Shown here piece after piece: positions 9,435-62,544 of a stretch of 64,000 nt of DNA. Location: positions 2,184-66,183 of the forward strand of contig JAAZXC010000001.1 of the NCBI GenBank assembly GCA_014240365.1, given 5' to 3'. Position 1 is the first letter of the stretch. Each line of letters starts with the position of its first letter. The notes beneath the pieces are model-generated. The model saw nothing but the letters and a program-made list of their open reading frames with translations. It did no database searches and was not told the DNA's origin. The position numbers and the translations under genes are program-made. Source of the stretch: Acidimicrobiales bacterium (GTDB taxonomy: Bacteria; Actinomycetota; Acidimicrobiia; Acidimicrobiales; MedAcidi-G1).

Positions 9435-10739
9435 TCAGCCCGCTTCCGAGTGTGTGACGGGCTGCTCGCCCATCCATTCCCGCAGAGTGTTCTTGAACTT
9501 GGTCTGCTGGATGAAGAGGTCGTGCTCGGCGGCTGCCTCGCCGGCCGGCTGGGGAGCCTTCAGGTAGAAGGACAGCCATTCCTGCACGCCGGACTGTCCG
9601 GCCCGGTGGGCGAGGTCCAGGAAGAGCGCCAGGTCCAGGACGATCGGGGCGGCCAGGATGGAGTCGCGGCAGAGGAAGTCCACCTTGATCTGCATGGGGT
9701 AGCCCATCCATCCGAAGATGTCGATGGCGTCCCAGCCCTCCTTGTTGTCGCCACGGGGTGGGTAGTAGTTGATGCGAACCACGTGGTCGATGTTGCCGTA
9801 GAGCTCCGGGTAGGACTCCGGCTGGAGGATCGCGTCCAGCACGCCGAGCTTGGACACCTCCTTGGTCTTGAAGTTCTCCGGGTCGTCCAGTACCTCGCCG
9901 TCCCGGTTCCCCAGGATGTTGGTGGAGTACCAGCCGCGCAGGCCCAGCATCCGGGCCTTGAAGCCGGGGGCCAGCATGGTCTTCATGAGGGTCTGGCCGG
10001 TCTTGAAGTCCTTGCCGGCGATCGGCACGCCGCGGCGGGCGGCCAACTCGATCATGCACGGCAGATCGACGCTCAGGTTCGGTGCGCCGTTGGCGAACGG
10101 TACGTCGCTCATCAGCGCGGCGTAGACGTAGATCTGGCTGGGGGAGATGTTCTCGTCGTTGGCACGCAGGCCGGCCTCGAATGCCTCGACGGTGTCGTGT
10201 ACGGCGCTGGCCTCCTGGTAGGCCTCGGTCGAACCGCACCAGACCATGACCAGGCGGTCGCACTCGTTCTGGATGCGGAACCGCTCGATGTCGTCGATCA
10301 GCGCCTGGGCCTGGTCCCACATGGCGGTGATGGACTTGACCCGGGTGCCGTTCAGCTTCTTGACCCAGCGGTTGTTGAAGACGGCGTCCATGGCGATGAT
10401 GCCCTCCAGCTCGGCCGAGATGGGAGCGAGGTCCTTCTCCTCGAGCACGCCGCAGGTGTTGGCGGCCTCCAGCACGTTGGCCGAGATGGGATCCCAGCCG
10501 CCGAAGACAATGTCGTCCAGTTCGGCCAGCGGCACGAACTCGCGGATGAGAGGGTTGCGGTCCTCGCCGCGACCACCCAGGCGGATGTGGGCCATCTGAC
10601 TGACTGATCCGATCGGAGCGGTCAGGCCGTTGCGGGCGGCGATCACGCCTGCGATGAAGGTGGATGCCACTGCGCCCATACCGGGGGTGAGTATCCCGAG
10701 GCGGCCGGTGGCTGGTGCGATTTCAAGGGGTGCGTTCAT
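9435..10739 (-). CDS. ino1: myo-inositol-1-phosphate (inositol-3-phosphate) synthase
   Basis: 434 aa. N-terminal Rossmann segment is GILTPGMGAVASTFIAG. Conserved MIPS blocks are GKDFKTGQTLMKT, WYSTNILGNRDGEVL and ELYGNIDHVV. Confidence 0.9.
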   Translation of the reverse strand: MNAPLEIAPATGRLGILTPGMGAVASTFIAGVIAARNGLTAPIGSVSQMAHIRLGGRGEDRNPLIREFVPLAELDDIVFGGWDPISANVLEAANTCGVLEEKDLAPISAELEGIIAMDAVFNNRWVKKLNGTRVKSITAMWDQAQALIDDIERFRIQNECDRLVMVWCGSTEAYQEASAVHDTVEAFEAGLRANDENISPSQIYVYAALMSDVPFANGAPNLSVDLPCMIELAARRGVPIAGKDFKTGQTLMKTMLAPGFKARMLGLRGWYSTNILGNRDGEVLDDPENFKTKEVSKLGVLDAILQPESYPELYGNIDHVVRINYYPPRGDNKEGWDAIDIFGWMGYPMQIKVDFLCRDSILAAPIVLDLALFLDLAHRAGQSGVQEWLSFYLKAPQPAGEAAAEHDLFIQQTKFKNTLREWMGEQPVTHSEAG

Positions 10740-10775
10740 AGAGGTTCAGGATAAGCACATCCGAATGATCAGCGG

Positions 10776-10796
10776 TTAAGATTCAGTAACACTTAA
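10776..10796. promoter_or_regulatory. candidate LysR-type regulator box (T-N11-A inverted repeat TTAAG-N11-CTTAA)
   Basis: Perfect 5-bp inverted repeat with an 11-nt spacer (ttaag attcagtaaca cttaa). It sits in the AT-richer 113-bp divergent intergenic region between ino1 and the LysR gene. Confidence 0.4.
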
Positions 10797-10852
10797 TCCA
10801 GCATCAGAGCGTTTCAAGTACCGCTCCAGCCACCCGACGAGGGGCCCCTTCA

Positions 10853-11728
10853 ATGGCCGATCCGAGGCTTCCGAACCTGACCGTCCAACAGTTGGAGTAC
10901 CTGGTGGCGGCAGCGGCATCTCCCACCCGGGCGGCAGCCGCCAAAGACCTGGGCGTGACCCCGTCTGCCCTCACCCAGGGCCTCGCCGAACTGGAGAGGC
11001 GGGTCGGCGTGCCGTTGTTCGAACGCAAGGGCCGCCAGACCAGGCTCCGACCCCAGGCCACCGAGGTCCTGGCCCACGCCCGCCGGGTCGTGGCCGAGAC
11101 CAGGGACCTGGCCCGCTGGGCCGAGACCCGACGTACGGGCACCGCCGGCACTGTGAGGCTCGGCACCATCGACGCCGTGGCGATCCACCATCGGGCAGCG
11201 ACGATCCGTCACCACCGGCGCGTCAGCCCCGGCCTCGACCTGAGACTCACCGTGGCTCCCTCCGGGGCACTCCTGGACTCATTGCGCGTCGGCGACCTGG
11301 ACCTGGTGGTCTGCGTCGAGCCGGCCAGCCCACCCGATGGCATCGACACCGTCCTCTGCCTGGAGGAACCCCTGCACGCATACGCCCCTGACGGCGCCGT
11401 CGGCGGAGCCCCCGAGACCTGGGGGCCATGGGTCACCTACCCGGACGGGTCCCACACGAGAGCCGTCATCGCCGCCGGCCTGATGGCGGTCGGGGCGCCG
11501 TTCGAGGTGGTGGCCGAATCCAACCAGCCGGACGTGCTGCGCGAGATGGTCCGCCTCGGCATGGGTTGGGCGGTGCTCCCCGAGGCCCAGGCCGGCGCCG
11601 GGGTGGAACCACTGGCACGGGTCCGCCGACTTCCCATCGGCGTACGCCGCCTGGTCGTGGCCCGGCGCTCCGGGGCGTCGCCCGACGCCGCCGTGGATGC
11701 ACTCGCCACCACCCTCCTGAACGGCTGA
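10853..11728 (+). CDS. LysR family transcriptional regulator
   Basis: 291 aa. N-terminal wHTH is LTVQQLEYLVAAAASPTRAAAAKDLGVTPSALTQGLAELERRVGVPLFER, followed by an LTTR substrate-binding-like C-terminal domain. Confidence 0.85.
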   Translation: MADPRLPNLTVQQLEYLVAAAASPTRAAAAKDLGVTPSALTQGLAELERRVGVPLFERKGRQTRLRPQATEVLAHARRVVAETRDLARWAETRRTGTAGTVRLGTIDAVAIHHRAATIRHHRRVSPGLDLRLTVAPSGALLDSLRVGDLDLVVCVEPASPPDGIDTVLCLEEPLHAYAPDGAVGGAPETWGPWVTYPDGSHTRAVIAAGLMAVGAPFEVVAESNQPDVLREMVRLGMGWAVLPEAQAGAGVEPLARVRRLPIGVRRLVVARRSGASPDAAVDALATTLLNG

Positions 11729-13167: not shown

Positions 13168-14316
13168 ATGCCCGGCGTTCTATCCCACCTGATCGTGGCA
13201 GCTGTGGCGGCAGTGGTCACCGCTACCGCCACCCCACTGGTCCGACGCTTCGCCGTGGGCTCCGGCCTGCTTGTCGCCCCGGACGAACGCAATGTCCACT
13301 CCGAGCCCACGCCGCCGCTGGGAGGAACCGCAATGCTCCTGGGGCTGCTGGCCGGGGTGCTGGCGGCCTGGATGCTGGGGGACTTCAGCGCCGTGTTCGC
13401 CGCTCCCTCGGAGATGCTGGGCGTGGTGGCGGCTGCGGTGGTCATCTGCGCCGTCGGGGTCATCGACGACGTCCGACCATTGTCGGCACCGGCCAAGGTG
13501 GCCGGGATGGTGCTCTCCGGCAGCGTGTTGTCGCTGTCGGGCGTGTCGCTGGTCGTGCTACGGATCCCCTTCCTCGACGTCGTGCTGCTCTCGCCTGACC
13601 TGTCGGCTCTGCTCACCGTGGTCTGGGTGGTGCTCCTGGCCAACGCCATGAATCTGACCGACGGCCTCGATGGCCTGGCGGCCGGAATCGCCGCCATCGC
13701 AGCAGCCACCTTCTTCCTCTACGCCCTGCGCCTGGGTGACGAGGGCCTGCTCTTCGATGGCAATCCGGGGTCGGTGCTGGCCGTCATCGTGGTCGGGATC
13801 TGTGTCGGGTTCCTGCCACACAACGTGCATCCCGCACGGATCTTCATGGGAGATGGTGGGGCCCTTCTCCTGGGACTGCTGATGGCCGCCGCCACGGTGT
13901 CGGTGGGTGGACGGACCGAGGCGGCCTACAGCGGGCAGTCGTTCTTCTTCTTCGCTCCGGTGTTCATACCCGTCGTGATCCTCGGGGTGCCGCTGTTCGA
14001 CATGGCCTTCGCCGTCCTGCGCCGGGTGGCCACGCCGGGCCTGCGGGTCACCGACGCCGACAAGGAACACCTCCACCACCGCCTCCTGCGCCTGGGCCAT
14101 GGCCATCGCCGGGCCGTGCTGATCCTCTGGGGCTGGACGGCCCTCCTCTCGGGCTTCGTGCTCTGGCCCACCTACTCGGGTGACGGCGATGCAATCGTGC
14201 CCATCGGGGTGCTGGCCCTGGGTCTGGGCCTCTTCACGGTGTTGCACCCGCGCTTTCGGGCGTCGCCGGCCGGTGTGACCGATTCAGGGGTTGCCGGAGG
14301 GGGAGTTGGTGATTAG
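13168..14316 (+). CDS. wecA: MraY/WecA-family polyprenyl-phosphate N-acetylhexosamine-1-phosphate transferase (GT4)
   Basis: 382 aa polytopic membrane protein. Motifs are NAMNLTDGLDGLAAG and FMGDGGALLLG. Its position directly upstream of the atp operon matches mycobacterial rfe/wecA. Confidence 0.8.
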   Translation: MPGVLSHLIVAAVAAVVTATATPLVRRFAVGSGLLVAPDERNVHSEPTPPLGGTAMLLGLLAGVLAAWMLGDFSAVFAAPSEMLGVVAAAVVICAVGVIDDVRPLSAPAKVAGMVLSGSVLSLSGVSLVVLRIPFLDVVLLSPDLSALLTVVWVVLLANAMNLTDGLDGLAAGIAAIAAATFFLYALRLGDEGLLFDGNPGSVLAVIVVGICVGFLPHNVHPARIFMGDGGALLLGLLMAAATVSVGGRTEAAYSGQSFFFFAPVFIPVVILGVPLFDMAFAVLRRVATPGLRVTDADKEHLHHRLLRLGHGHRRAVLILWGWTALLSGFVLWPTYSGDGDAIVPIGVLALGLGLFTVLHPRFRASPAGVTDSGVAGGGVGD

Positions 14317-14409
14317 ATTCACAAGCGCGTTCGGGGACCTTATGGTCACCGGACCGCCACGTACGACGACCATGGGCCCTGTGGCGCCCGCCGGTGGAGG
14401 ACTTTCCCG

Positions 14410-14679
14410 ATGGCGCAGGCCAGAACGCGTGAAGTGCAGGAGGGTTCAGGCGATGCTTTCGCCGCTGCCTTCGAGCTCGTCGCGACGCCTGCCATCTTCG
14501 GCTTTCTGGGCTGGCTCCTGGACGGTCGCCTCGGCACCACACCGATCTTCACCGTCGCCTTCGTCGTGATCGCCCTCGCCTACGCCTCATGGCGACTGGC
14601 CCACGACTACGGCCAGAGCCTCGAGCGGGCCCGTGTGCAACGACAGGCCGCCTGGCGAGCCGAGGGCTCCCCGCTGTGA
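14410..14679 (+). CDS. AtpZ/AtpI-family small membrane protein (ATP synthase gene 1-like)
   Basis: 89 aa with two predicted TM helices (FELVATPAIFGFLGWLLD, PIFTVAFVVIALAYASW). First gene of the atp cluster. Confidence 0.6.
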   Translation: MAQARTREVQEGSGDAFAAAFELVATPAIFGFLGWLLDGRLGTTPIFTVAFVVIALAYASWRLAHDYGQSLERARVQRQAAWRAEGSPL

Positions 14680-55897: not shown

Positions 55898-56123
55898 AAG
55901 TGCTCCGTTCTCGTGACGCCGTGGCCTCGCCCTGTGGCGTCGTGACCTGCAGGAACCCGAAGTGTCGCCCAACACTGTGCGGGCGTCCAACCGTCAGGGC
56001 CGGGTGGGGGGCCGAACGGGACGCTTCGGTACCCTCTCGACAGAACATCTGACGTCGTGTCAGGTGCCCGGGGCCGGTCCCGGGCGCTGCGGCGCCGGAT
56101 CTGCACCAGGGAGAACCAGCGTC

Positions 56124-57596
56124 ATGCGCGAGATCGCCGACATCGATCCCCAGCAGGAATGGAAGCTCCTGGTCGGAGGGGAGTGGACGTCCACGTCGGG
56201 CACCTACGAGATCGTGGATCCCAACACCACGGCCGTGGTGGGCCACGCCCCCGACGGGACGGTTGCCGACGCCGAAGCGGCCATCGCAGCGGCGAAGGGC
56301 GCCCTTCCGGACTGGAGGGACACTTCGCCGGTGGAGCGTGGAGCGATGCTGGGCCGCCTCGCCGAGGTGCTCCGCGAGCGGGCGCCCACCTGGTCGGCGC
56401 TGGTCCAGGCCGAGACGGGCGCCACCATCAAGGTGGCCGAGTCCATGCAGGTCGGACCGAACCTCGCTGACCGCTACGCCCAGTACTCCGTCCCCCGCGA
56501 CCTGGACAGGGCCGAGCTGCCGGTCACCCAGGCCGCATCGGCACTGGGCCCGGCGGGTCTGATCGGAGCGGTCTCACATCGTCAGCCGGTCGGCGTGGTC
56601 GCCTGCATCACCTCCTACAACTTCCCCCTCGTGAACGTGGCCGGCAAGTTGGCACCGGCGCTGGCCATGGGCAACACCTGCATCATCAAGCCGGCTCCGC
56701 AGGACCCGTTGGGCGTGCTGCGGCTGGGTGAGGCGGTGGTCGAGGCCGGCTTCCCGCCCGGCGTGGTGAACATTCTGACCAGCTCGGGGGTGGATGCCTC
56801 CGCCGCCCTCGTCGCATCGCCGGACGTGAATATGGTCAGCTTCACCGGATCGTCGGCTGTGGGCAAGCGGATCATGGCTGACGGTGCGGCATCCATGACC
56901 CGGGTGCTGATGGAGCTGGGCGGCAAGGGCGCCATGGTCATGACCGAGGATGCCGACGTGAACGCAGCCGTCGGGGCGATCGCCAGCGTCTGGGGCTTCC
57001 ACAGTGGCCAGATATGCACGGCACCCACCCGGGTGATCTGCCATCGCAGCATCTATGACCAGCTGGTCTCCACACTGCAGTCGGTGGCCGGGATGCTCAA
57101 GGTCGGCGATGCCACCGAGGGCGACACCATCGTCGGCCCTCTGGTCTCTGAACGCCAGCGCGACAGCGTGGAGGCATTCATCCGCAACGGGGTGGACGCC
57201 GGCGCCACGCTGGTGTGCGGAGGGGACCGTCCGGACCTGCCCGGCTACTTCGTAGCCCCGACCCTGCTGGCCGACTGCACCACGGACATGCACGTCGTGC
57301 GCGAGGAGGCGTTCGGCCCGGTGGTGGTCGTGCTGCCACACGACGGCGATGACGAGGCGGTGGCTATCGCCAACGATTCGGCGTACGGGCTCTACAGCTA
57401 CGTCTACGCCGGCGACATGGCCCGCGCCTACCGCATTGCCCGGCGCCTGGAGTCTGGCAACGTGGCACTGAACAGCATCGTTCCCCACCCGAACGCGCCC
57501 TTCGGCGGGTTCAAGGAGTCCGGGATCGGCCGTGACCGTGGCATCGCCGGCCTCGAGGCCTACAGCGAGGTCCAGGCGATCTCGTGGATGGCCTGA
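56124..57596 (+). CDS. NAD(P)-dependent aldehyde dehydrogenase
   Basis: Start trimmed to ATG 56124, after GGGAGA. Motifs are FTGSSAVGKRI, ELGGKGA, the catalytic Cys in HSGQICTAPTR and EEAFGPV. Confidence 0.9.
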   Translation: MREIADIDPQQEWKLLVGGEWTSTSGTYEIVDPNTTAVVGHAPDGTVADAEAAIAAAKGALPDWRDTSPVERGAMLGRLAEVLRERAPTWSALVQAETGATIKVAESMQVGPNLADRYAQYSVPRDLDRAELPVTQAASALGPAGLIGAVSHRQPVGVVACITSYNFPLVNVAGKLAPALAMGNTCIIKPAPQDPLGVLRLGEAVVEAGFPPGVVNILTSSGVDASAALVASPDVNMVSFTGSSAVGKRIMADGAASMTRVLMELGGKGAMVMTEDADVNAAVGAIASVWGFHSGQICTAPTRVICHRSIYDQLVSTLQSVAGMLKVGDATEGDTIVGPLVSERQRDSVEAFIRNGVDAGATLVCGGDRPDLPGYFVAPTLLADCTTDMHVVREEAFGPVVVVLPHDGDDEAVAIANDSAYGLYSYVYAGDMARAYRIARRLESGNVALNSIVPHPNAPFGGFKESGIGRDRGIAGLEAYSEVQAISWMA

Positions 57597-57668
57597 CGGT
57601 CTCGCTGTCGGTAACGGCCCGGGTACTAGGTTCTTCGTAGCGACAACCCCCTGAGTTGAGGAGACGAG

Positions 57669-58121
57669 ATGCTTGAAGTTGGAACCACGGCTCCGGGCTT
57701 CGCCGTGCCTGACCAGGACGGTCAGGTCGTGACCCTGGAGAGCCTGCGTGGCCACTGGGTGGCCCTCTGGTGGTATCCGGTGGCGTCCACCCCCGGTTGA
57801 ACGATTCAGGGCGGCGGGTTCCGTGACCGAACCCCGGACTATGAATCAGCCGACGCGGTGATCGTCGGCGCCAGCTTCGACACCGTCGAGGCGCAGAAGA
57901 ACTTCGCCGACGAGCAGGGCTTTGGGTACCGCCTGCTGGCCGACACCGACAAGGTGATGGGTGCGGCCTATCTGGCCGTACAGGAGGACAAGTTCTACCC
58001 GCGACGCATCAGCTACCTGATCGACCCCGAGGGCATCATCGTCCGCACCTACGACCTTGCAGGTGAGGACCTCAACGAACACGCTTCGGCCGTCCTGGAA
58101 GACATCCGGGCACTCTCCTGA
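57669..58121 (+). CDS. bcp: Bcp/PrxQ-type peroxiredoxin with in-frame TGA (57798-57800) at the peroxidatic-Cys position: candidate selenoprotein (alternatively a nonsense pseudogene)
   Basis: ATG 57669 lies 5 nt after GAGGAGA. Translation is MLEVGTTAPGFAVPDQDGQVVTLESLRGHWVALWWYPVASTPG[TGA]TIQGGGFRD...AVIVGASFDT...FGYRLLADTD...YPRRISYLIDPEG.... The PxxxTxxC motif of peroxiredoxins reads P-VAS-T-PG-[TGA] here. The frame stays open with coding GC3 to the stop at 58121. Confidence 0.6.
57816..57834 (+). promoter_or_regulatory. candidate bacterial SECIS-like hairpin downstream of the in-frame TGA
   Basis: GGGUUC-CGUGACC-GAACCC is a 6-bp stem with a 7-nt apical loop carrying GU at loop positions 2-3. 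The stem starts 15 nt after the TGA. Confidence 0.35.
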
Positions 58122-58143
58122 GCCTCCTGGTGGGTTGGTCGGG

Positions 58144-59355
58144 ATGGTGACCGGCCCGTTGGAGGGCCTGTCGGTCGTGGAGGGCACGGCCTTCGTGGCC
58201 GCGCCGTCCGGCGGGATGACGTTGGCCCAGCTGGGTGCCGATGTCATCCGTTTCGACCAGGTGGGTGGTGGCCTGGACCATCGCCGTTGGCCGCTGACAA
58301 AAGACGGTGTCAGCCTCTACTGGAACGGCCTGAACCGGGGCAAGCGTTCGCTGGCCGTGAACCTGCGGGATCCGGAGGTGACCGAGCTGCTGGCCGAGTT
58401 GATTGCCCGGGCCGGCAACTTCCTCACCAACTTCCCGCCGGTGGGGTGGATGTCCTACGAGGAGCTGCGGTCCCGCCGCGAGGACCTGGTGATGCTCGTC
58501 ATCACCGGCTCGCATGATGGCACAAGCGCTCTGGACTACACGATCAACTGCGCGGTCGGTTATCCGGCCATGACCGGCCACCCGGACGATCCGCGCCCGG
58601 TGAACAACGTCGTCCCGGCATGGGATCTGGTCTGCGGGCAGATGGCGGCACTCGGCCTGGTGGCTGCCGATCGGCACCGCTATCGGACAGGCGAGGGTCA
58701 GCAGGTCACGATTGCGCTGTCCGACGTGGCGCTGGCCACGGTGGGATCCCTGGGGAACCTGGCTGAAGCGCAGGTCAACGGCCAGGTCCGCGGCCGGGTC
58801 GGCAATGCCATCTACGGGGCCTTCGGGCGGGACTTCAAGACGGCGGATGACCGGCGGGTGATGGTGGTTGCGATCACCCCGAAGCAGTGGCGGGGCCTGC
58901 TGGAGGTGACCGGCATGGAGGCCGAGGTTGCCGCCCTCGCCGCGGAACTGGGCGTGGACTTCGCCGACGAGGGCGCCAGGTACGGGGCCACCGGTCGACT
59001 CTGCGACCTGTTCGATCCATGGTTCGCTCAACGCACCCTCGCCGAGGTGGCCAGCGGGCTGGATGCAAACGCGGTGTGCTGGGGCCCGTACCGGACGGTC
59101 GCCGAACTGTTGGACGAGGACCCCCGGTGCTCTACGACCAACCCGCTGTTCGCCGAGCTTGACCAGCCGGGTGTGGGGACCCACCTTGTTCCCGGATCCC
59201 CGCTGGCCTTCGGCGGGAGCGCTGCCGACAGGGGCGCACAGGTGGCGCCGCTGCTGGGCCAGCACACCGTGGAGATCCTGACCCTTGACCTGGGCCTCAC
59301 CTCGGCTGAGGTGGGGGCACTCATCGACCGTGGAGCGGTGGCGACAGCCGACTGA
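58144..59355 (+). CDS. family III CoA-transferase (CaiB/BaiF family)
   Basis: Start trimmed to ATG 58144 (MVTGPLEGLSVVEGTAFVAAPSGGMTLAQLGADVIRFD). Typical block is NRGKRSLAVNLRDPE, with a conserved Asp region. Confidence 0.85.
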   Translation: MVTGPLEGLSVVEGTAFVAAPSGGMTLAQLGADVIRFDQVGGGLDHRRWPLTKDGVSLYWNGLNRGKRSLAVNLRDPEVTELLAELIARAGNFLTNFPPVGWMSYEELRSRREDLVMLVITGSHDGTSALDYTINCAVGYPAMTGHPDDPRPVNNVVPAWDLVCGQMAALGLVAADRHRYRTGEGQQVTIALSDVALATVGSLGNLAEAQVNGQVRGRVGNAIYGAFGRDFKTADDRRVMVVAITPKQWRGLLEVTGMEAEVAALAAELGVDFADEGARYGATGRLCDLFDPWFAQRTLAEVASGLDANAVCWGPYRTVAELLDEDPRCSTTNPLFAELDQPGVGTHLVPGSPLAFGGSAADRGAQVAPLLGQHTVEILTLDLGLTSAEVGALIDRGAVATAD

Positions 59356-60725: not shown

Positions 60726-61064
60726 GTGTCAGATGCAGTGGTGAACCTTTACGTTGACTCCCAGGCGATGAACTGGGTGGATGACGCACTGTGCGTCGGC
60801 CGCAGCGACCAGTTCTTCGCCCCCTTCGCCGAGCGCCCCGAAGCCAGGGTCCGCCGCGAGGCGCGTGCCGCAGAACTCTGCGCCGCATGTCCGGCCATGT
60901 ACTCCTGCCGTGAGTACGCCCGCGAGAACCGTGAGTTGGGATTCTGGGGCGGAGAGTCTGAGGCCGAGCGGGCCACCGCCGGATTCGCCCCGACCACCCC
61001 CATCATCGGGCGACGCCAGGTGGCCGCACGTCGTGCCGCTGCTGCACTCGCCGAGGCCGGCTGA
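60726..61064 (+). CDS. WhiB-family (Wbl) Fe-S transcriptional regulator
   Basis: 112 aa with a GTG start. The four Cys pattern is C(23)...C-AA-C-PAMYS-C, followed by the GFWGGES turn and a basic C-terminus. Confidence 0.8.
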   Translation: MSDAVVNLYVDSQAMNWVDDALCVGRSDQFFAPFAERPEARVRREARAAELCAACPAMYSCREYARENRELGFWGGESEAERATAGFAPTTPIIGRRQVAARRAAAALAEAG

Positions 61065-61087: not shown

Positions 61088-61873
61088 TCACAGACCGAGG
61101 AAGCCGCCACCGTCCACGCAGAGCGTCTGGCCGGTTATGAACCGTGCCATGTCGCTGGCCAGGAACACCGCTACAGGGCCGACGTCATCGAGCGGGTTGC
61201 CGATCCGTCCCAGAGGCGTCCGTTCCAGGAGGCGTTCCCGCAGGTCCGGGTTCTCCATGTAGGCACGTTGCATCGCAGCGGTGTCGGCCACCGGTGCGAT
61301 GCAGTTGACACGTATGGAGTCGGCTCCCCATTCAGCAGCCAGACCCTTGGCCAGCGTGCGCTGGGCCGCCTTCACCATGGCGTAGACGGGCAGTTGGGTG
61401 CTTCCCTCCATGCCTGCCGCCGACGTCATGAGAATCATCGAGCCGCCCGAATCGCGCAGGTGCGGGTGGGCTGCACGGGCTCCGTCGAATGTGGCCCGGA
61501 TGGTCGTGGCCACCATGGCGTCCCAGTGGTCCTGGGACACGTCCTGGATCCGGGTCGGACCACCGGTAGGGGCAATGGCGTTGTGCACCATGCAGTCCAG
61601 CCGTCCATGTGCAGCCACGGTCGCCTCCACAGAGGCTCCGATGTCGTCGGCCGAGGTCACGTCACAACGGACGCACCGGACGTCATGCCCTGCCTCCCGG
61701 AGCACAGCGGCGGCGGGCTCACCGATTTCAGGTCGTCGACAGGCCAGCACGACAGCCGCCCCATGGGCCGCCATGGCCGTGGCCATGCCGAGGCCCAGGC
61801 CTGAGGCACCGCCGGTCACCAGCACCACGCGGCCTTCCAGTAGCCGGCTCCTTGATGCCGGACCCGGGCTCAC
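61088..61873 (-). CDS. SDR family oxidoreductase (canonical)
   Basis: 261 aa. Motifs are VTGGASGLGLG, NAIA, a catalytic Ser region and the YAMVKAA YxxxK. Confidence 0.85.
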   Translation of the reverse strand: MSPGPASRSRLLEGRVVLVTGGASGLGLGMATAMAAHGAAVVLACRRPEIGEPAAAVLREAGHDVRCVRCDVTSADDIGASVEATVAAHGRLDCMVHNAIAPTGGPTRIQDVSQDHWDAMVATTIRATFDGARAAHPHLRDSGGSMILMTSAAGMEGSTQLPVYAMVKAAQRTLAKGLAAEWGADSIRVNCIAPVADTAAMQRAYMENPDLRERLLERTPLGRIGNPLDDVGPVAVFLASDMARFITGQTLCVDGGGFLGL

Positions 61874-62544
61874 GGTGCCATCCAGACGCCGCCGTCGGCA
61901 ACCAGGGTCGTACCGGTCATGAACCGGGCCGACGGATCGGCCAGCAGGTCCAGTAGGGGGGCAATGTCGCCGAAGGCATCCCCGGACCGACCCAGCGCCG
62001 GGCCGGCGAGGGTCGGGACCAGCGCTCCGGCGCCAGACTCAGCCGGAAGGACCAGCTCGGGTGCCACGGCCAGCACCGCTGTGGTCAGGCCATCGGGCCC
62101 CCACTGCCTGGCGGTGCTCTTGGCCAGGGCACGGATCCCCTCGGCTGCGGCTGCGAAACCCACGAAGCCGGCGGCTCCGCCCATGGCCACTGTCGGCACG
62201 ACCCACACGAGGCGTGCCCGGTCCGAGAGGTATGCACGACAGGCCCGGACCACGGCGAAGGCTTCGGCCATTGGTGCCTCACAGGCTTCCACCCACTGCT
62301 GTGTGGACTGGTCGATGAGGGCCACTGCTCTGGCCGGCACAGTCGGTACGTGGACAACCAACTCTGGACGGCCGATCAGGCCGATGCCGGTTCCGATGCC
62401 AGTACCGACATCGGTCCCATCGTCGGTGCGTACGGGCACCACCTGGGCCACAAGGTGGCCGCGGTCCAGCAGGCCGTCGTGCAGTCCATCGGCGAGTGGG
62501 CCGTCACCGACCAGCAGGGTGCGGGTCCCGTCAGCCATGGGCAT
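61870..62544 (-). CDS. SDR-fold paralogue with degenerate cofactor and catalytic motifs
   Basis: 224 aa with an ATGA overlap to the canonical SDR. TGxxxGxG is replaced by VGDGPLADG, and YxxxK is replaced by FAAAAEG. The C-terminal TGTTLVADGG block is retained. Confidence 0.65.
   Translation of the reverse strand: MPMADGTRTLLVGDGPLADGLHDGLLDRGHLVAQVVPVRTDDGTDVGTGIGTGIGLIGRPELVVHVPTVPARAVALIDQSTQQWVEACEAPMAEAFAVVRACRAYLSDRARLVWVVPTVAMGGAAGFVGFAAAAEGIRALAKSTARQWGPDGLTTAVLAVAPELVLPAESGAGALVPTLAGPALGRSGDAFGDIAPLLDLLADPSARFMTGTTLVADGGVWMAP

Follow-up and report, generated by a model that had tools for sequence, protein, structure and literature searches.

A predicted selenocysteine-containing peroxiredoxin of the Bcp/PrxQ type in marine and sponge-associated Acidimicrobiia

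The peroxiredoxin locus

We analyzed a stretch of 64,000 nucleotides (hereafter, the window) from the genome of an Acidimicrobiales bacterium (assembly GCA_014240365.1, contig JAAZXC010000001.1, positions 2,184 to 66,183). The window has a GC content of 68% and contains, at positions 57669-58121, a peroxiredoxin gene (prx) that is interrupted by an in-frame TGA at the codon of the catalytic cysteine. We describe here the evidence that this codon is read as selenocysteine (Sec), under the control of a hairpin that resembles a bacterial Sec insertion sequence (SECIS). The features of the gene are the following:

57669-58121, forward strand: predicted selenoprotein gene, complete, encoding a Bcp/PrxQ-type peroxiredoxin of 150 residues with Sec at position 44; stop codon TGA at 58119-58121
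57658-57664, forward strand: Shine-Dalgarno-like GAGGAGA, 4 nt before the start codon ATG 57669, from direct reading of the sequence
57798-57800, forward strand: UGA codon 44, predicted to be read as Sec, in the peroxidatic Cys column of the motif P-x3-T-x2-C, placed by orthologue alignment
57816-57834, forward strand: putative bacterial SECIS-type hairpin within the coding sequence, with a 6-bp stem and a 7-nt loop, supported by covariation
57803-57847, forward strand: outer stem specific to the window, GAUUCA (57803-57808) pairing with UGAAUC (57842-57847), from the minimum free energy fold of 57798-57860

Past the TGA at 57798-57800, the frame stays open until the stop codon at 58119-58121. 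The catalytic motif of the protein reads P37-VAS-T41-PG-[TGA], and a Gly occupies the position (+5) where a resolving Cys could be expected. A preliminary description of the window, made from its letters alone, had already reported the reading frame, the in-frame TGA and its coincidence with the catalytic Cys column, the position of the hairpin, and the Gly at +5, all of which we found again upon re-reading the sequence. It also described the GAGGAGA motif upstream of the start codon, which is indeed there, at a distance of 4 nt and not of the 5 nt initially given.

Conservation of the in-frame TGA

We collected 71 orthologous loci, keeping one genome per species, and retrieved them with peptide patterns located far downstream of the TGA to avoid a bias in the catalytic column. 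This column is TGA in 70 of the 71 loci, at identities down to 28%, and TGC in the remaining one, from Anaerolineae (L068). Most of the loci with TGA come from metagenome-assembled genomes (MAGs) of marine and sponge-associated Acidimicrobiia, including 13 complete chromosomes (e.g., OZ241977). The distant members were found in Myxococcota, Acidobacteria, Planctomycetota, Verrucomicrobia, Marinimicrobia, and in one MAG of Syntrophomonadaceae. Hence, judging from the alignment, the gene of the window belongs to an orthologous clade in which Sec is retained among marine and sponge-associated Acidimicrobiia.

Searches of protein databases give a different picture. The 88 full-length homologues have a Cys in column 44, and many other matches are proteins of 86-88 residues that cover the C-terminal 58% of the query with 66-98% identity. 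A few others, of 107-113 residues, begin just past the TGA. The matches of 86-88 residues are the footprint of gene callers halting at a common internal stop.

The TGA also recurs across assemblies of the population of the window. Its 453-nt gene, with the TGA and 0-1 nt of difference, is present on six long contigs that stem from separate samples and assemblers (ENA, NCBI, and Tara). These independent assemblies took the place of the read pile-ups that the preliminary description had proposed as a check for an assembly error, and all of them have TGA. Beyond these contigs, the 87-residue tail of the protein is present in 429 blocks of the sequence collection, and exact fragments of the allele of the window occur on about 270-285 contigs.

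We then compared the gene of the window with ten orthologues using the Nei-Gojobori method. The dN/dS ratios range from 0.04 to 0.19 in codons 1-43 and from 0.09 to 0.46 in codons 45-150, which indicates that purifying selection acts on both halves of the gene, before and after the TGA.

A few sequences depart from this pattern. The locus L074 (positions 459-911) differs from L005 (5717-6169) at 8 of the 453 nucleotides (98.2% identity), and one of these differences is TGC in place of TGA. Three distinct proteins with Cys (P0001, P0135, and P0137) are known, each from one short contig. In the group of L005, TGC was found on 3 contigs, and the TGA allele, a sister of the one in the window, on more than 1,100. 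It is thus possible that a rare TGC allele coexists with the dominant TGA in one species-level group, in which case Sec and Cys would be a natural polymorphism. One further database protein, P0002, has a Trp at the catalytic column and was considered as a TGG variant. We rejected it, as the codon is TGA in all four of its contigs (L075-L078). These short contigs fail to yield the stored protein under translation table 11, the gene having been called under code 4. Entries of this type could mislead alignments of the family.

Finally, a comparative screen of the window and of the flanks of the loci for further genes with a conserved in-frame TGA returned prx alone, the other clusters being ordinary gene ends.

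A SECIS-type hairpin downstream of the TGA

The hairpin begins 15 nt past the TGA and is made of GGGUUC (57816-57821), the loop CGUGACC (57822-57828), and GAACCC (57829-57834). It overlaps the codons for G-F-R-D-R-T-P, and its stem reaches 7 bp in most orthologues. Positions 2-3 of the loop are G-U, which correspond to nucleotides 26-27 when counted from the U of UGA. Both the position of the hairpin and this G-U fit the general model of bacterial SECIS.

We studied covariation in 64 TGA genes, aligned without gaps and numbered in the same way. Nucleotides 18-24 and 32-38 make a 7-bp helix in which 96.5% of the cells are paired; sliding the 3' partner by 1-3 nt lowers this share to 13-68%. Changes on both sides of a pair were observed in 27 cells for an expectation of 9.4, and none of 500 shuffles matched the observed values. 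RNAalifold, applied to the same 64 sequences, predicted the inner six pairs and kept nothing outside them. The outer stem GAUUCA/UGAAUC, which lengthens the element to a 45-nt hairpin in the window, is therefore missing from the consensus structure.

Two pairs show repeated compensatory changes. At pair 21-35, G-C is replaced by A-U in 20 sequences, which belong to at least three lineages (L006, the sponge clade, and L053), and by C-G in L058. At pair 22-34, U-A gives way to C-G in six sequences from several lineages, and the U-G intermediates are also present. At the protein level, these switches couple a synonymous change in Gly with a replacement of Thr by Ile, and a replacement of Phe by Leu with one of Thr by Ala. 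Such coupled changes are hard to explain by constraints on the protein. The loop CGUGAYC is essentially invariant, and its Arg codon is CGU in nearly all forms from Acidimicrobiia, a rare choice at high GC.

The hairpin follows the TGA across the family. Of 71 TGA genes, 65 keep the register with at least 6 of the 7 pairs, while the diverged Cys homologues retain only 1-5. The exception among the Cys forms is the TGC variant L074, 98% identical to its TGA relative, which keeps 7 of 7 pairs. Since the register is kept in most TGA genes, compensatory changes recur, and the pairing is lost in diverged Cys homologues, the element at 57816-57834 behaves as expected from a bacterial SECIS as far as comparative data can tell. 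An alignment of orthologues was among the checks suggested in the preliminary description, and it speaks for Sec on both counts: the column is TGA nearly throughout, and the hairpin co-varies.

Some of the distant TGA forms outside Acidimicrobiia (L050, L054, L062, and L067) are without the GGGUUC/GAACCC helix. They have another hairpin of 7-8 bp with a GUU triloop (e.g., CACGG-GUU-CCGUG) located about 12-30 nt past the TGA, and thus as far from the UGA as the helix that they lack. In L069 and L070, the stem of the hairpin is GUUUGC/GCAAAC. From these sequences, the family appears to use more than one SECIS design.

Family, fold, and active site

We substituted Cys for residue 44 to search for homologues of the protein. 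It matched the Pfam profile AhpC-TSA (PF00578) over residues 4-125 (E = 6.9e-29, 100.7 bits for a cut-off of 26). The top models of NCBIfam were Bcp (NF006960) and PrxQ (NF053650), both under their equivalog cut-offs (88.5 vs 140 and 71.7 vs 260 bits, respectively). The best matches in the PDB were all BCP/PrxQ (E = 5e-22), and the TGA aligned with the peroxidatic Cys of their motif STPGCT. In line with this, the nearest relatives in sequence were Bcp/PrxQ rather than AhpC/Prx1, Tpx, or Prx5.

The structure was modeled with AlphaFold (AF2) on the natural Cys variant and gave a predicted local distance difference test (pLDDT) score of 96.9. Foldseek searches with this model returned BCP/PrxQ proteins as top matches, with template modeling (TM) scores of 0.88-0.93 to PrxQ, BcpB, and AhpE. 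The helix 42-60 has residue 44 in its first turn, the canonical site of the peroxidatic residue. The active site, which in this subfamily combines the catalytic motif with an Arg of strand beta6, is conserved among 72 sequences: Pro37 is found in 71, Thr41 in 72, Sec or Cys at column 44 in 72, and the active-site Arg113 in 71. The latter is encoded 3' of the TGA, as are numerous invariant residues at positions 67-143.

The protein of the window has no cysteine at all, a trait common to 54 of the 71 Sec forms, and a Cys at +5 occurs in four distant members only. Sequence comparisons and the structural model thus identify the protein as a peroxiredoxin of the Bcp/PrxQ subfamily with a predicted Sec in place of Cys, and predict that it is a peroxidase. 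Given the absence of cysteines and the Gly at +5, the enzymes of Acidimicrobiia would have to be 1-Sec peroxiredoxins, which an external reductant recycles directly.

Comparison with known systems

Selenoproteins of this family have been known for some time. The analysis of the selenoproteome from Global Ocean Sampling (GOS) described 253 selenoprotein sequences from 34 samples under "Prx, pfam00578, TxxU", among the most abundant marine families (Zhang & Gladyshev 2008, PMC2398784). The entries filed under "Peroxiredoxin" in its supplement include 115 sequences with TPGUT. One of these, the read JCVI_READ_1095468028167, is 54% identical to the protein of the window over its full length, and the two have WWYPKASTPGUT...GGGFRDRT in common. 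More recently, a review from 2022 defined the Prx selenoprotein family by COG1225 (Bcp) and TxxU (PMC9312934), and Prx selenoproteins have been counted in 78 sequenced organisms (Peng et al. 2016, PMC5029168). The latter study also documents the use of Sec in Actinobacteria. Within Acidimicrobiia, a 2026 preprint reports selA, selB, selC, and selD in all 84 complete genomes of Actinomarina (Actinomarinales) (bioRxiv 10.64898/2026.04.03.716425). The preliminary description had presented a Sec-for-Cys substitution in a peroxiredoxin as unusual for an actinobacterial genome. This overstated the novelty, since the family is catalogued and Sec is documented in Actinobacteria, including Acidimicrobiia.

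The protein of the window is like the GOS Prx family in its domain, in the T-x-x-U motif, and in having Sec in the peroxidatic column (T-P-G-U-T). The GOS reads lacked an assignment to organisms, whereas the clade described here is found in MAGs of Acidimicrobiia and in 13 complete chromosomes, with a SECIS-type element backed by covariation. These differences concern the depth of knowledge and not the kind of protein.

PrxU of Eubacterium acidaminophilum (Sohling et al. 2001; NF040737), which has been characterized biochemically, likewise has Sec at the peroxidatic position. The purification of this Sec peroxiredoxin is cited in PMC13188914, and PrxU is, as cited there, the sole member of the wider group with evidence at the protein level. 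PrxU belongs, however, to another subfamily of peroxiredoxins and comes from a strict anaerobe, whereas the clade of the window comes from oxic sea water and sponges. The protein of the window scores 34.4 bits with the PrxU model NF040737, far from its cut-off of 270, and by this measure it is not an orthologue of PrxU.

The Bcp/PrxQ proteins with Cys (E. coli Bcp, PrxQ of Xanthomonas campestris [5iiz/3gkk], and BcpB of M. tuberculosis [5epf]), as well as AhpE (1xxu), have the same fold and the same Pro-Thr-Cys/Arg site. The 1-Cys BCPs and AhpE, also a 1-Cys enzyme, are without a resolving Cys, as is the protein of the window. Relative to the Cys-type Bcp/PrxQ, the latter has selenium for sulfur, and its intragenic SECIS would constrain codons 50-56.

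The hairpin can be compared with the SECIS of E. coli fdhF. Both are stem-loops placed right after the UGA, inside the open reading frame, with a G-U in the apical loop. They differ in that the hairpin of the window is unrelated in sequence, starts 14-15 nt past the UGA, and has no evident bulged U. The minimal element of fdhF lies 11 nt downstream of the UGA, with the G and U at positions 23 and 24 (G23/U24), and the element of the window is thus shifted by about 3 nt.

Interpretation and alternative explanations

We think it very probable that the gene at 57669-58121 encodes a genuine selenoprotein, a Bcp/PrxQ peroxiredoxin containing Sec. We prefer this reading to a nonsense lesion because of the TGA in 70 of 71 loci, the covariation of the hairpin, the purifying selection downstream of the TGA, and the identical TGA in independent assemblies. 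The preliminary description had leaned the same way on the basis of the sequence of the window, and these comparative data bear it out.

The proposed mechanism is the following. UGA-44 would be recoded as Sec during translation, with the hairpin 15 nt downstream serving as a bacterial SECIS and presumably bringing SelB-GTP-Sec-tRNASec to the ribosome. The product would be a peroxidase of 150 residues with a thioredoxin fold, in which Sec44 is expected to neighbor Thr41 and Arg113 from the first turn of helix alpha2. Sec44 would attack the peroxide, giving a selenenic acid. An external thiol reductant would then have to reduce the oxidized selenium directly; thioredoxin, glutaredoxin, and mycoredoxin are candidates for this role by analogy with the 1-Cys enzymes BCP and AhpE.

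Several observations pull in the other direction. Searches with ARAGORN and with tblastn using E. coli SelA, SelB, and SelD covered the 64-kb window and the flanks of the 71 loci (about 1.2 Mb) and revealed no selA, selB, selD, or tRNA-Sec, although such flanks are uninformative on whole genomes. Similarly, none of the Sec-type SelD records that we found (see below) had a record or whole-genome shotgun (WGS) prefix in common with a MAG bearing prx. In the folding of 57798-57860, proposed in the preliminary description, the hairpin is in the minimum free energy fold; the fold of this single sequence (63 nt) is no more stable than shuffles (z = -0.51). We dropped single-sequence folding as evidence and used covariation instead, so that the significance of the hairpin has to come entirely from comparative data. 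A part of the conservation of the loop is confounded with that of the peptide F-R-D. Lastly, Rfam returned no relevant model, neither at gathering thresholds in the whole window nor at a permissive E-value in 57600-58200. Bacterial SECIS elements are thinly represented in Rfam.

An ordinary Bcp gene could have become a pseudogene by a recent nonsense mutation of TGC or TGT to TGA. The codon is indeed a single base away from TGC, the relative L074, 98.2% identical, has TGC, and the gene appears as two fragments both in GenBank and in the output of gene callers. Yet, the preliminary description associated such a lesion with relatives that all have Cys and with a relaxed downstream half. We found that 70 of 71 orthologues at the species level, with identities as low as 28%, have TGA, that the downstream dN/dS is low (0.09-0.46), that Arg113 is conserved in 71 of 72 sequences despite being encoded past the TGA, and that more than 1,100 contigs have TGA against 3 with TGC in the group of L005. 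A pseudogene is thus highly improbable. An error of assembly or sequencing at one base of the window has nothing specific in its favor and is a generic concern for sequences derived from MAGs. Six contigs from different samples and assemblers with an identical 453-nt gene (0-1 differences), and exact fragments on about 270-285 contigs, make it vanishingly unlikely. It is also very unlikely that the locus gives two separate products, as public records have it: an N-terminal peptide of 43 residues and, from GTG 57858, a C-terminal protein of 87. This is exactly what gene callers predict, but neither fragment would be a functional thioredoxin fold, and the structural model merges the strands and helices of both into one compact domain of high confidence. 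In addition, all orthologues keep in frame the 19 codons that separate the TGA from GTG 57858, the peptide that these codons encode (GGGFRDRTP...) is conserved, and the full-length Cys homologues are collinear. Downstream selection, the conserved Arg113, and the single-domain model lead us to reject both the pseudogene and the pair of fragments.

The UGA could instead be recoded into something other than Sec. In a few bacteria, Cys is inserted in a SelB-dependent manner by a tRNACys that resembles tRNASec. The clade could be devoid of canonical Sec biosynthesis and have its UGA and hairpin decoded in such a SelB-like way, inserting, for example, Cys from a tRNASec-like tRNACys, or the codon could undergo general read-through or reassignment (to Trp or Gly). 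We consider this very unlikely. It is true that the searches of the window and flanks found no Sec biosynthesis genes near prx, and that the database entry P0002 has Trp at column 44. This Trp is, however, an artefact of gene calling under code 4 over a real TGA, and neither Trp nor Gly could act as a peroxidatic residue. TGA terminates prx as well as both of its neighbors, the genes for an aldehyde dehydrogenase (ALDH) and a CoA-transferase (see below), so it is an ordinary stop in this genome and the code is not reassigned. The conserved SECIS-type hairpin, the membership in a catalogued selenoprotein family, and the presence of the Sec machinery in the same class all indicate canonical insertion of Sec. 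If there is a novel aspect, it is far more likely to be the Cys-free 1-Sec PrxQ itself, with a selenenic acid recycled by an external reductant, in abundant Acidimicrobiia of the oxic ocean.

Public records and significance

GenBank holds the gene as two proteins, MBT4676403.1 (43 aa) and MBT4676402.1 (105 aa), both annotated as "redoxin domain-containing protein". We found no entry with a U among the 120 best protein matches. Public databases thus store an antioxidant enzyme that is widespread in abundant marine and sponge-associated Acidimicrobiia only in pieces, of 43 and 87 or 105 aa, or else in the form of a spurious protein with Trp (code 4). As a consequence of these fragmentary records, metabolic reconstructions miss the enzyme and the selenium dependence of these organisms.

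What was known should be distinguished from what is new. A predicted Prx selenoprotein family has been described in ocean metagenomes since 2005-2008, and the gene of the window is a well-documented, mis-annotated member of it, which does not overturn the current understanding. The novelty is modest: a large clade can be placed in Acidimicrobiia, covariation supports its SECIS, the architecture is of the Cys-free 1-Sec type, and public records turn out to hold only fragments. This gives a taxonomic home to a part of the ocean "Prx (TxxU)" reads. It also provides the Prx family with a well-supported SECIS model, in which the RNA structure can be seen to constrain the sequence of the protein. 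Finally, a natural Cys-free 1-Sec peroxiredoxin would be a clean system to compare the chemistry of Sec and Cys, especially with rare TGC alleles in the same populations.

Sec machinery in other lineages

The lone weak match in the search for sel genes was a GTPase gene beside the Cys-type locus of Anaerolineae, L068. This translational GTPase (13567-14679) is about 3 kb downstream and has 27% identity to residues 3-325 of E. coli SelB; it may be SelB or some other factor of the EF-Tu family.

To link the Sec machinery to the genomes with prx, we started from a GOS SelD read, searched for its homologues, then searched a representative library, and finally used a profile of high-GC SelDs. This revealed Sec-type SelD loci with 45%, 64-66%, and 72% GC (in CACLTC01, CACOMV01, DBLO01, CEUV01, JAUJOS01, and JAUJML01). 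These marine SelDs form a clade of selenoproteins in their own right, the TGA falling in "SHGAG*GCK" or "SHGAG*ACK" (L090-L100, around 9872-10912, L101-L109, and L110-L111), and every database entry is truncated at the N-terminus. The genes fur and katG come after selD in L101-L109, suggesting a context of oxidative stress. In one of these lineages, about 8 kb from the Sec-type selD, a gene of the UGSC family, a known selenoprotein family, is split in a similar way (L094, 18732-19265, and also L095-L097 and L100). It was called as two proteins of 96 and 67 aa and is continuous through an in-frame TGA ("...SGLGD*GACTAC...").

Genomic neighborhood

The genes around prx in the window are the following:

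55962-57596, forward strand: aldehyde dehydrogenase (ALDH), upstream neighbor, ending in TGA (Pfam Aldedh, E = 1.5e-143)
58144-59355, forward strand: CoA-transferase of family III, downstream neighbor, ending in TGA (Pfam CoA_transf_3, E = 6.3e-61)
60726-61064: WhiB gene, 2.6 kb downstream of prx

The true start of the ALDH gene is probably internal to the open reading frame at 55962-57596. The gap between ALDH and prx is of 72 nt, and the one between prx and the CoA-transferase of 22 nt. Among the 71 loci, prx is adjoined by ALDH in 17 and by a CoA-transferase in 17. The full order ALDH-prx-CoA-transferase occurs in 15 of them, all close relatives, and the signals of promoters and terminators around prx were not informative. 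We therefore downgrade the apparent operon of these three genes put forward in the preliminary description: their order is not a functional operon signature of the Sec-PrxQ family.

Downstream of the WhiB gene, there are two adjacent short-chain dehydrogenase genes (61088-61873 and 61870-62544, reverse strand) that overlap by 4 nt. Since genes for short-chain dehydrogenases, a thiolase, a MaoC-like protein, the CoA-transferase, and ALDH are found together, the gene content suggests that the region encodes the catabolism of acyl-CoA or aldehydes rather than an island of redox defense.

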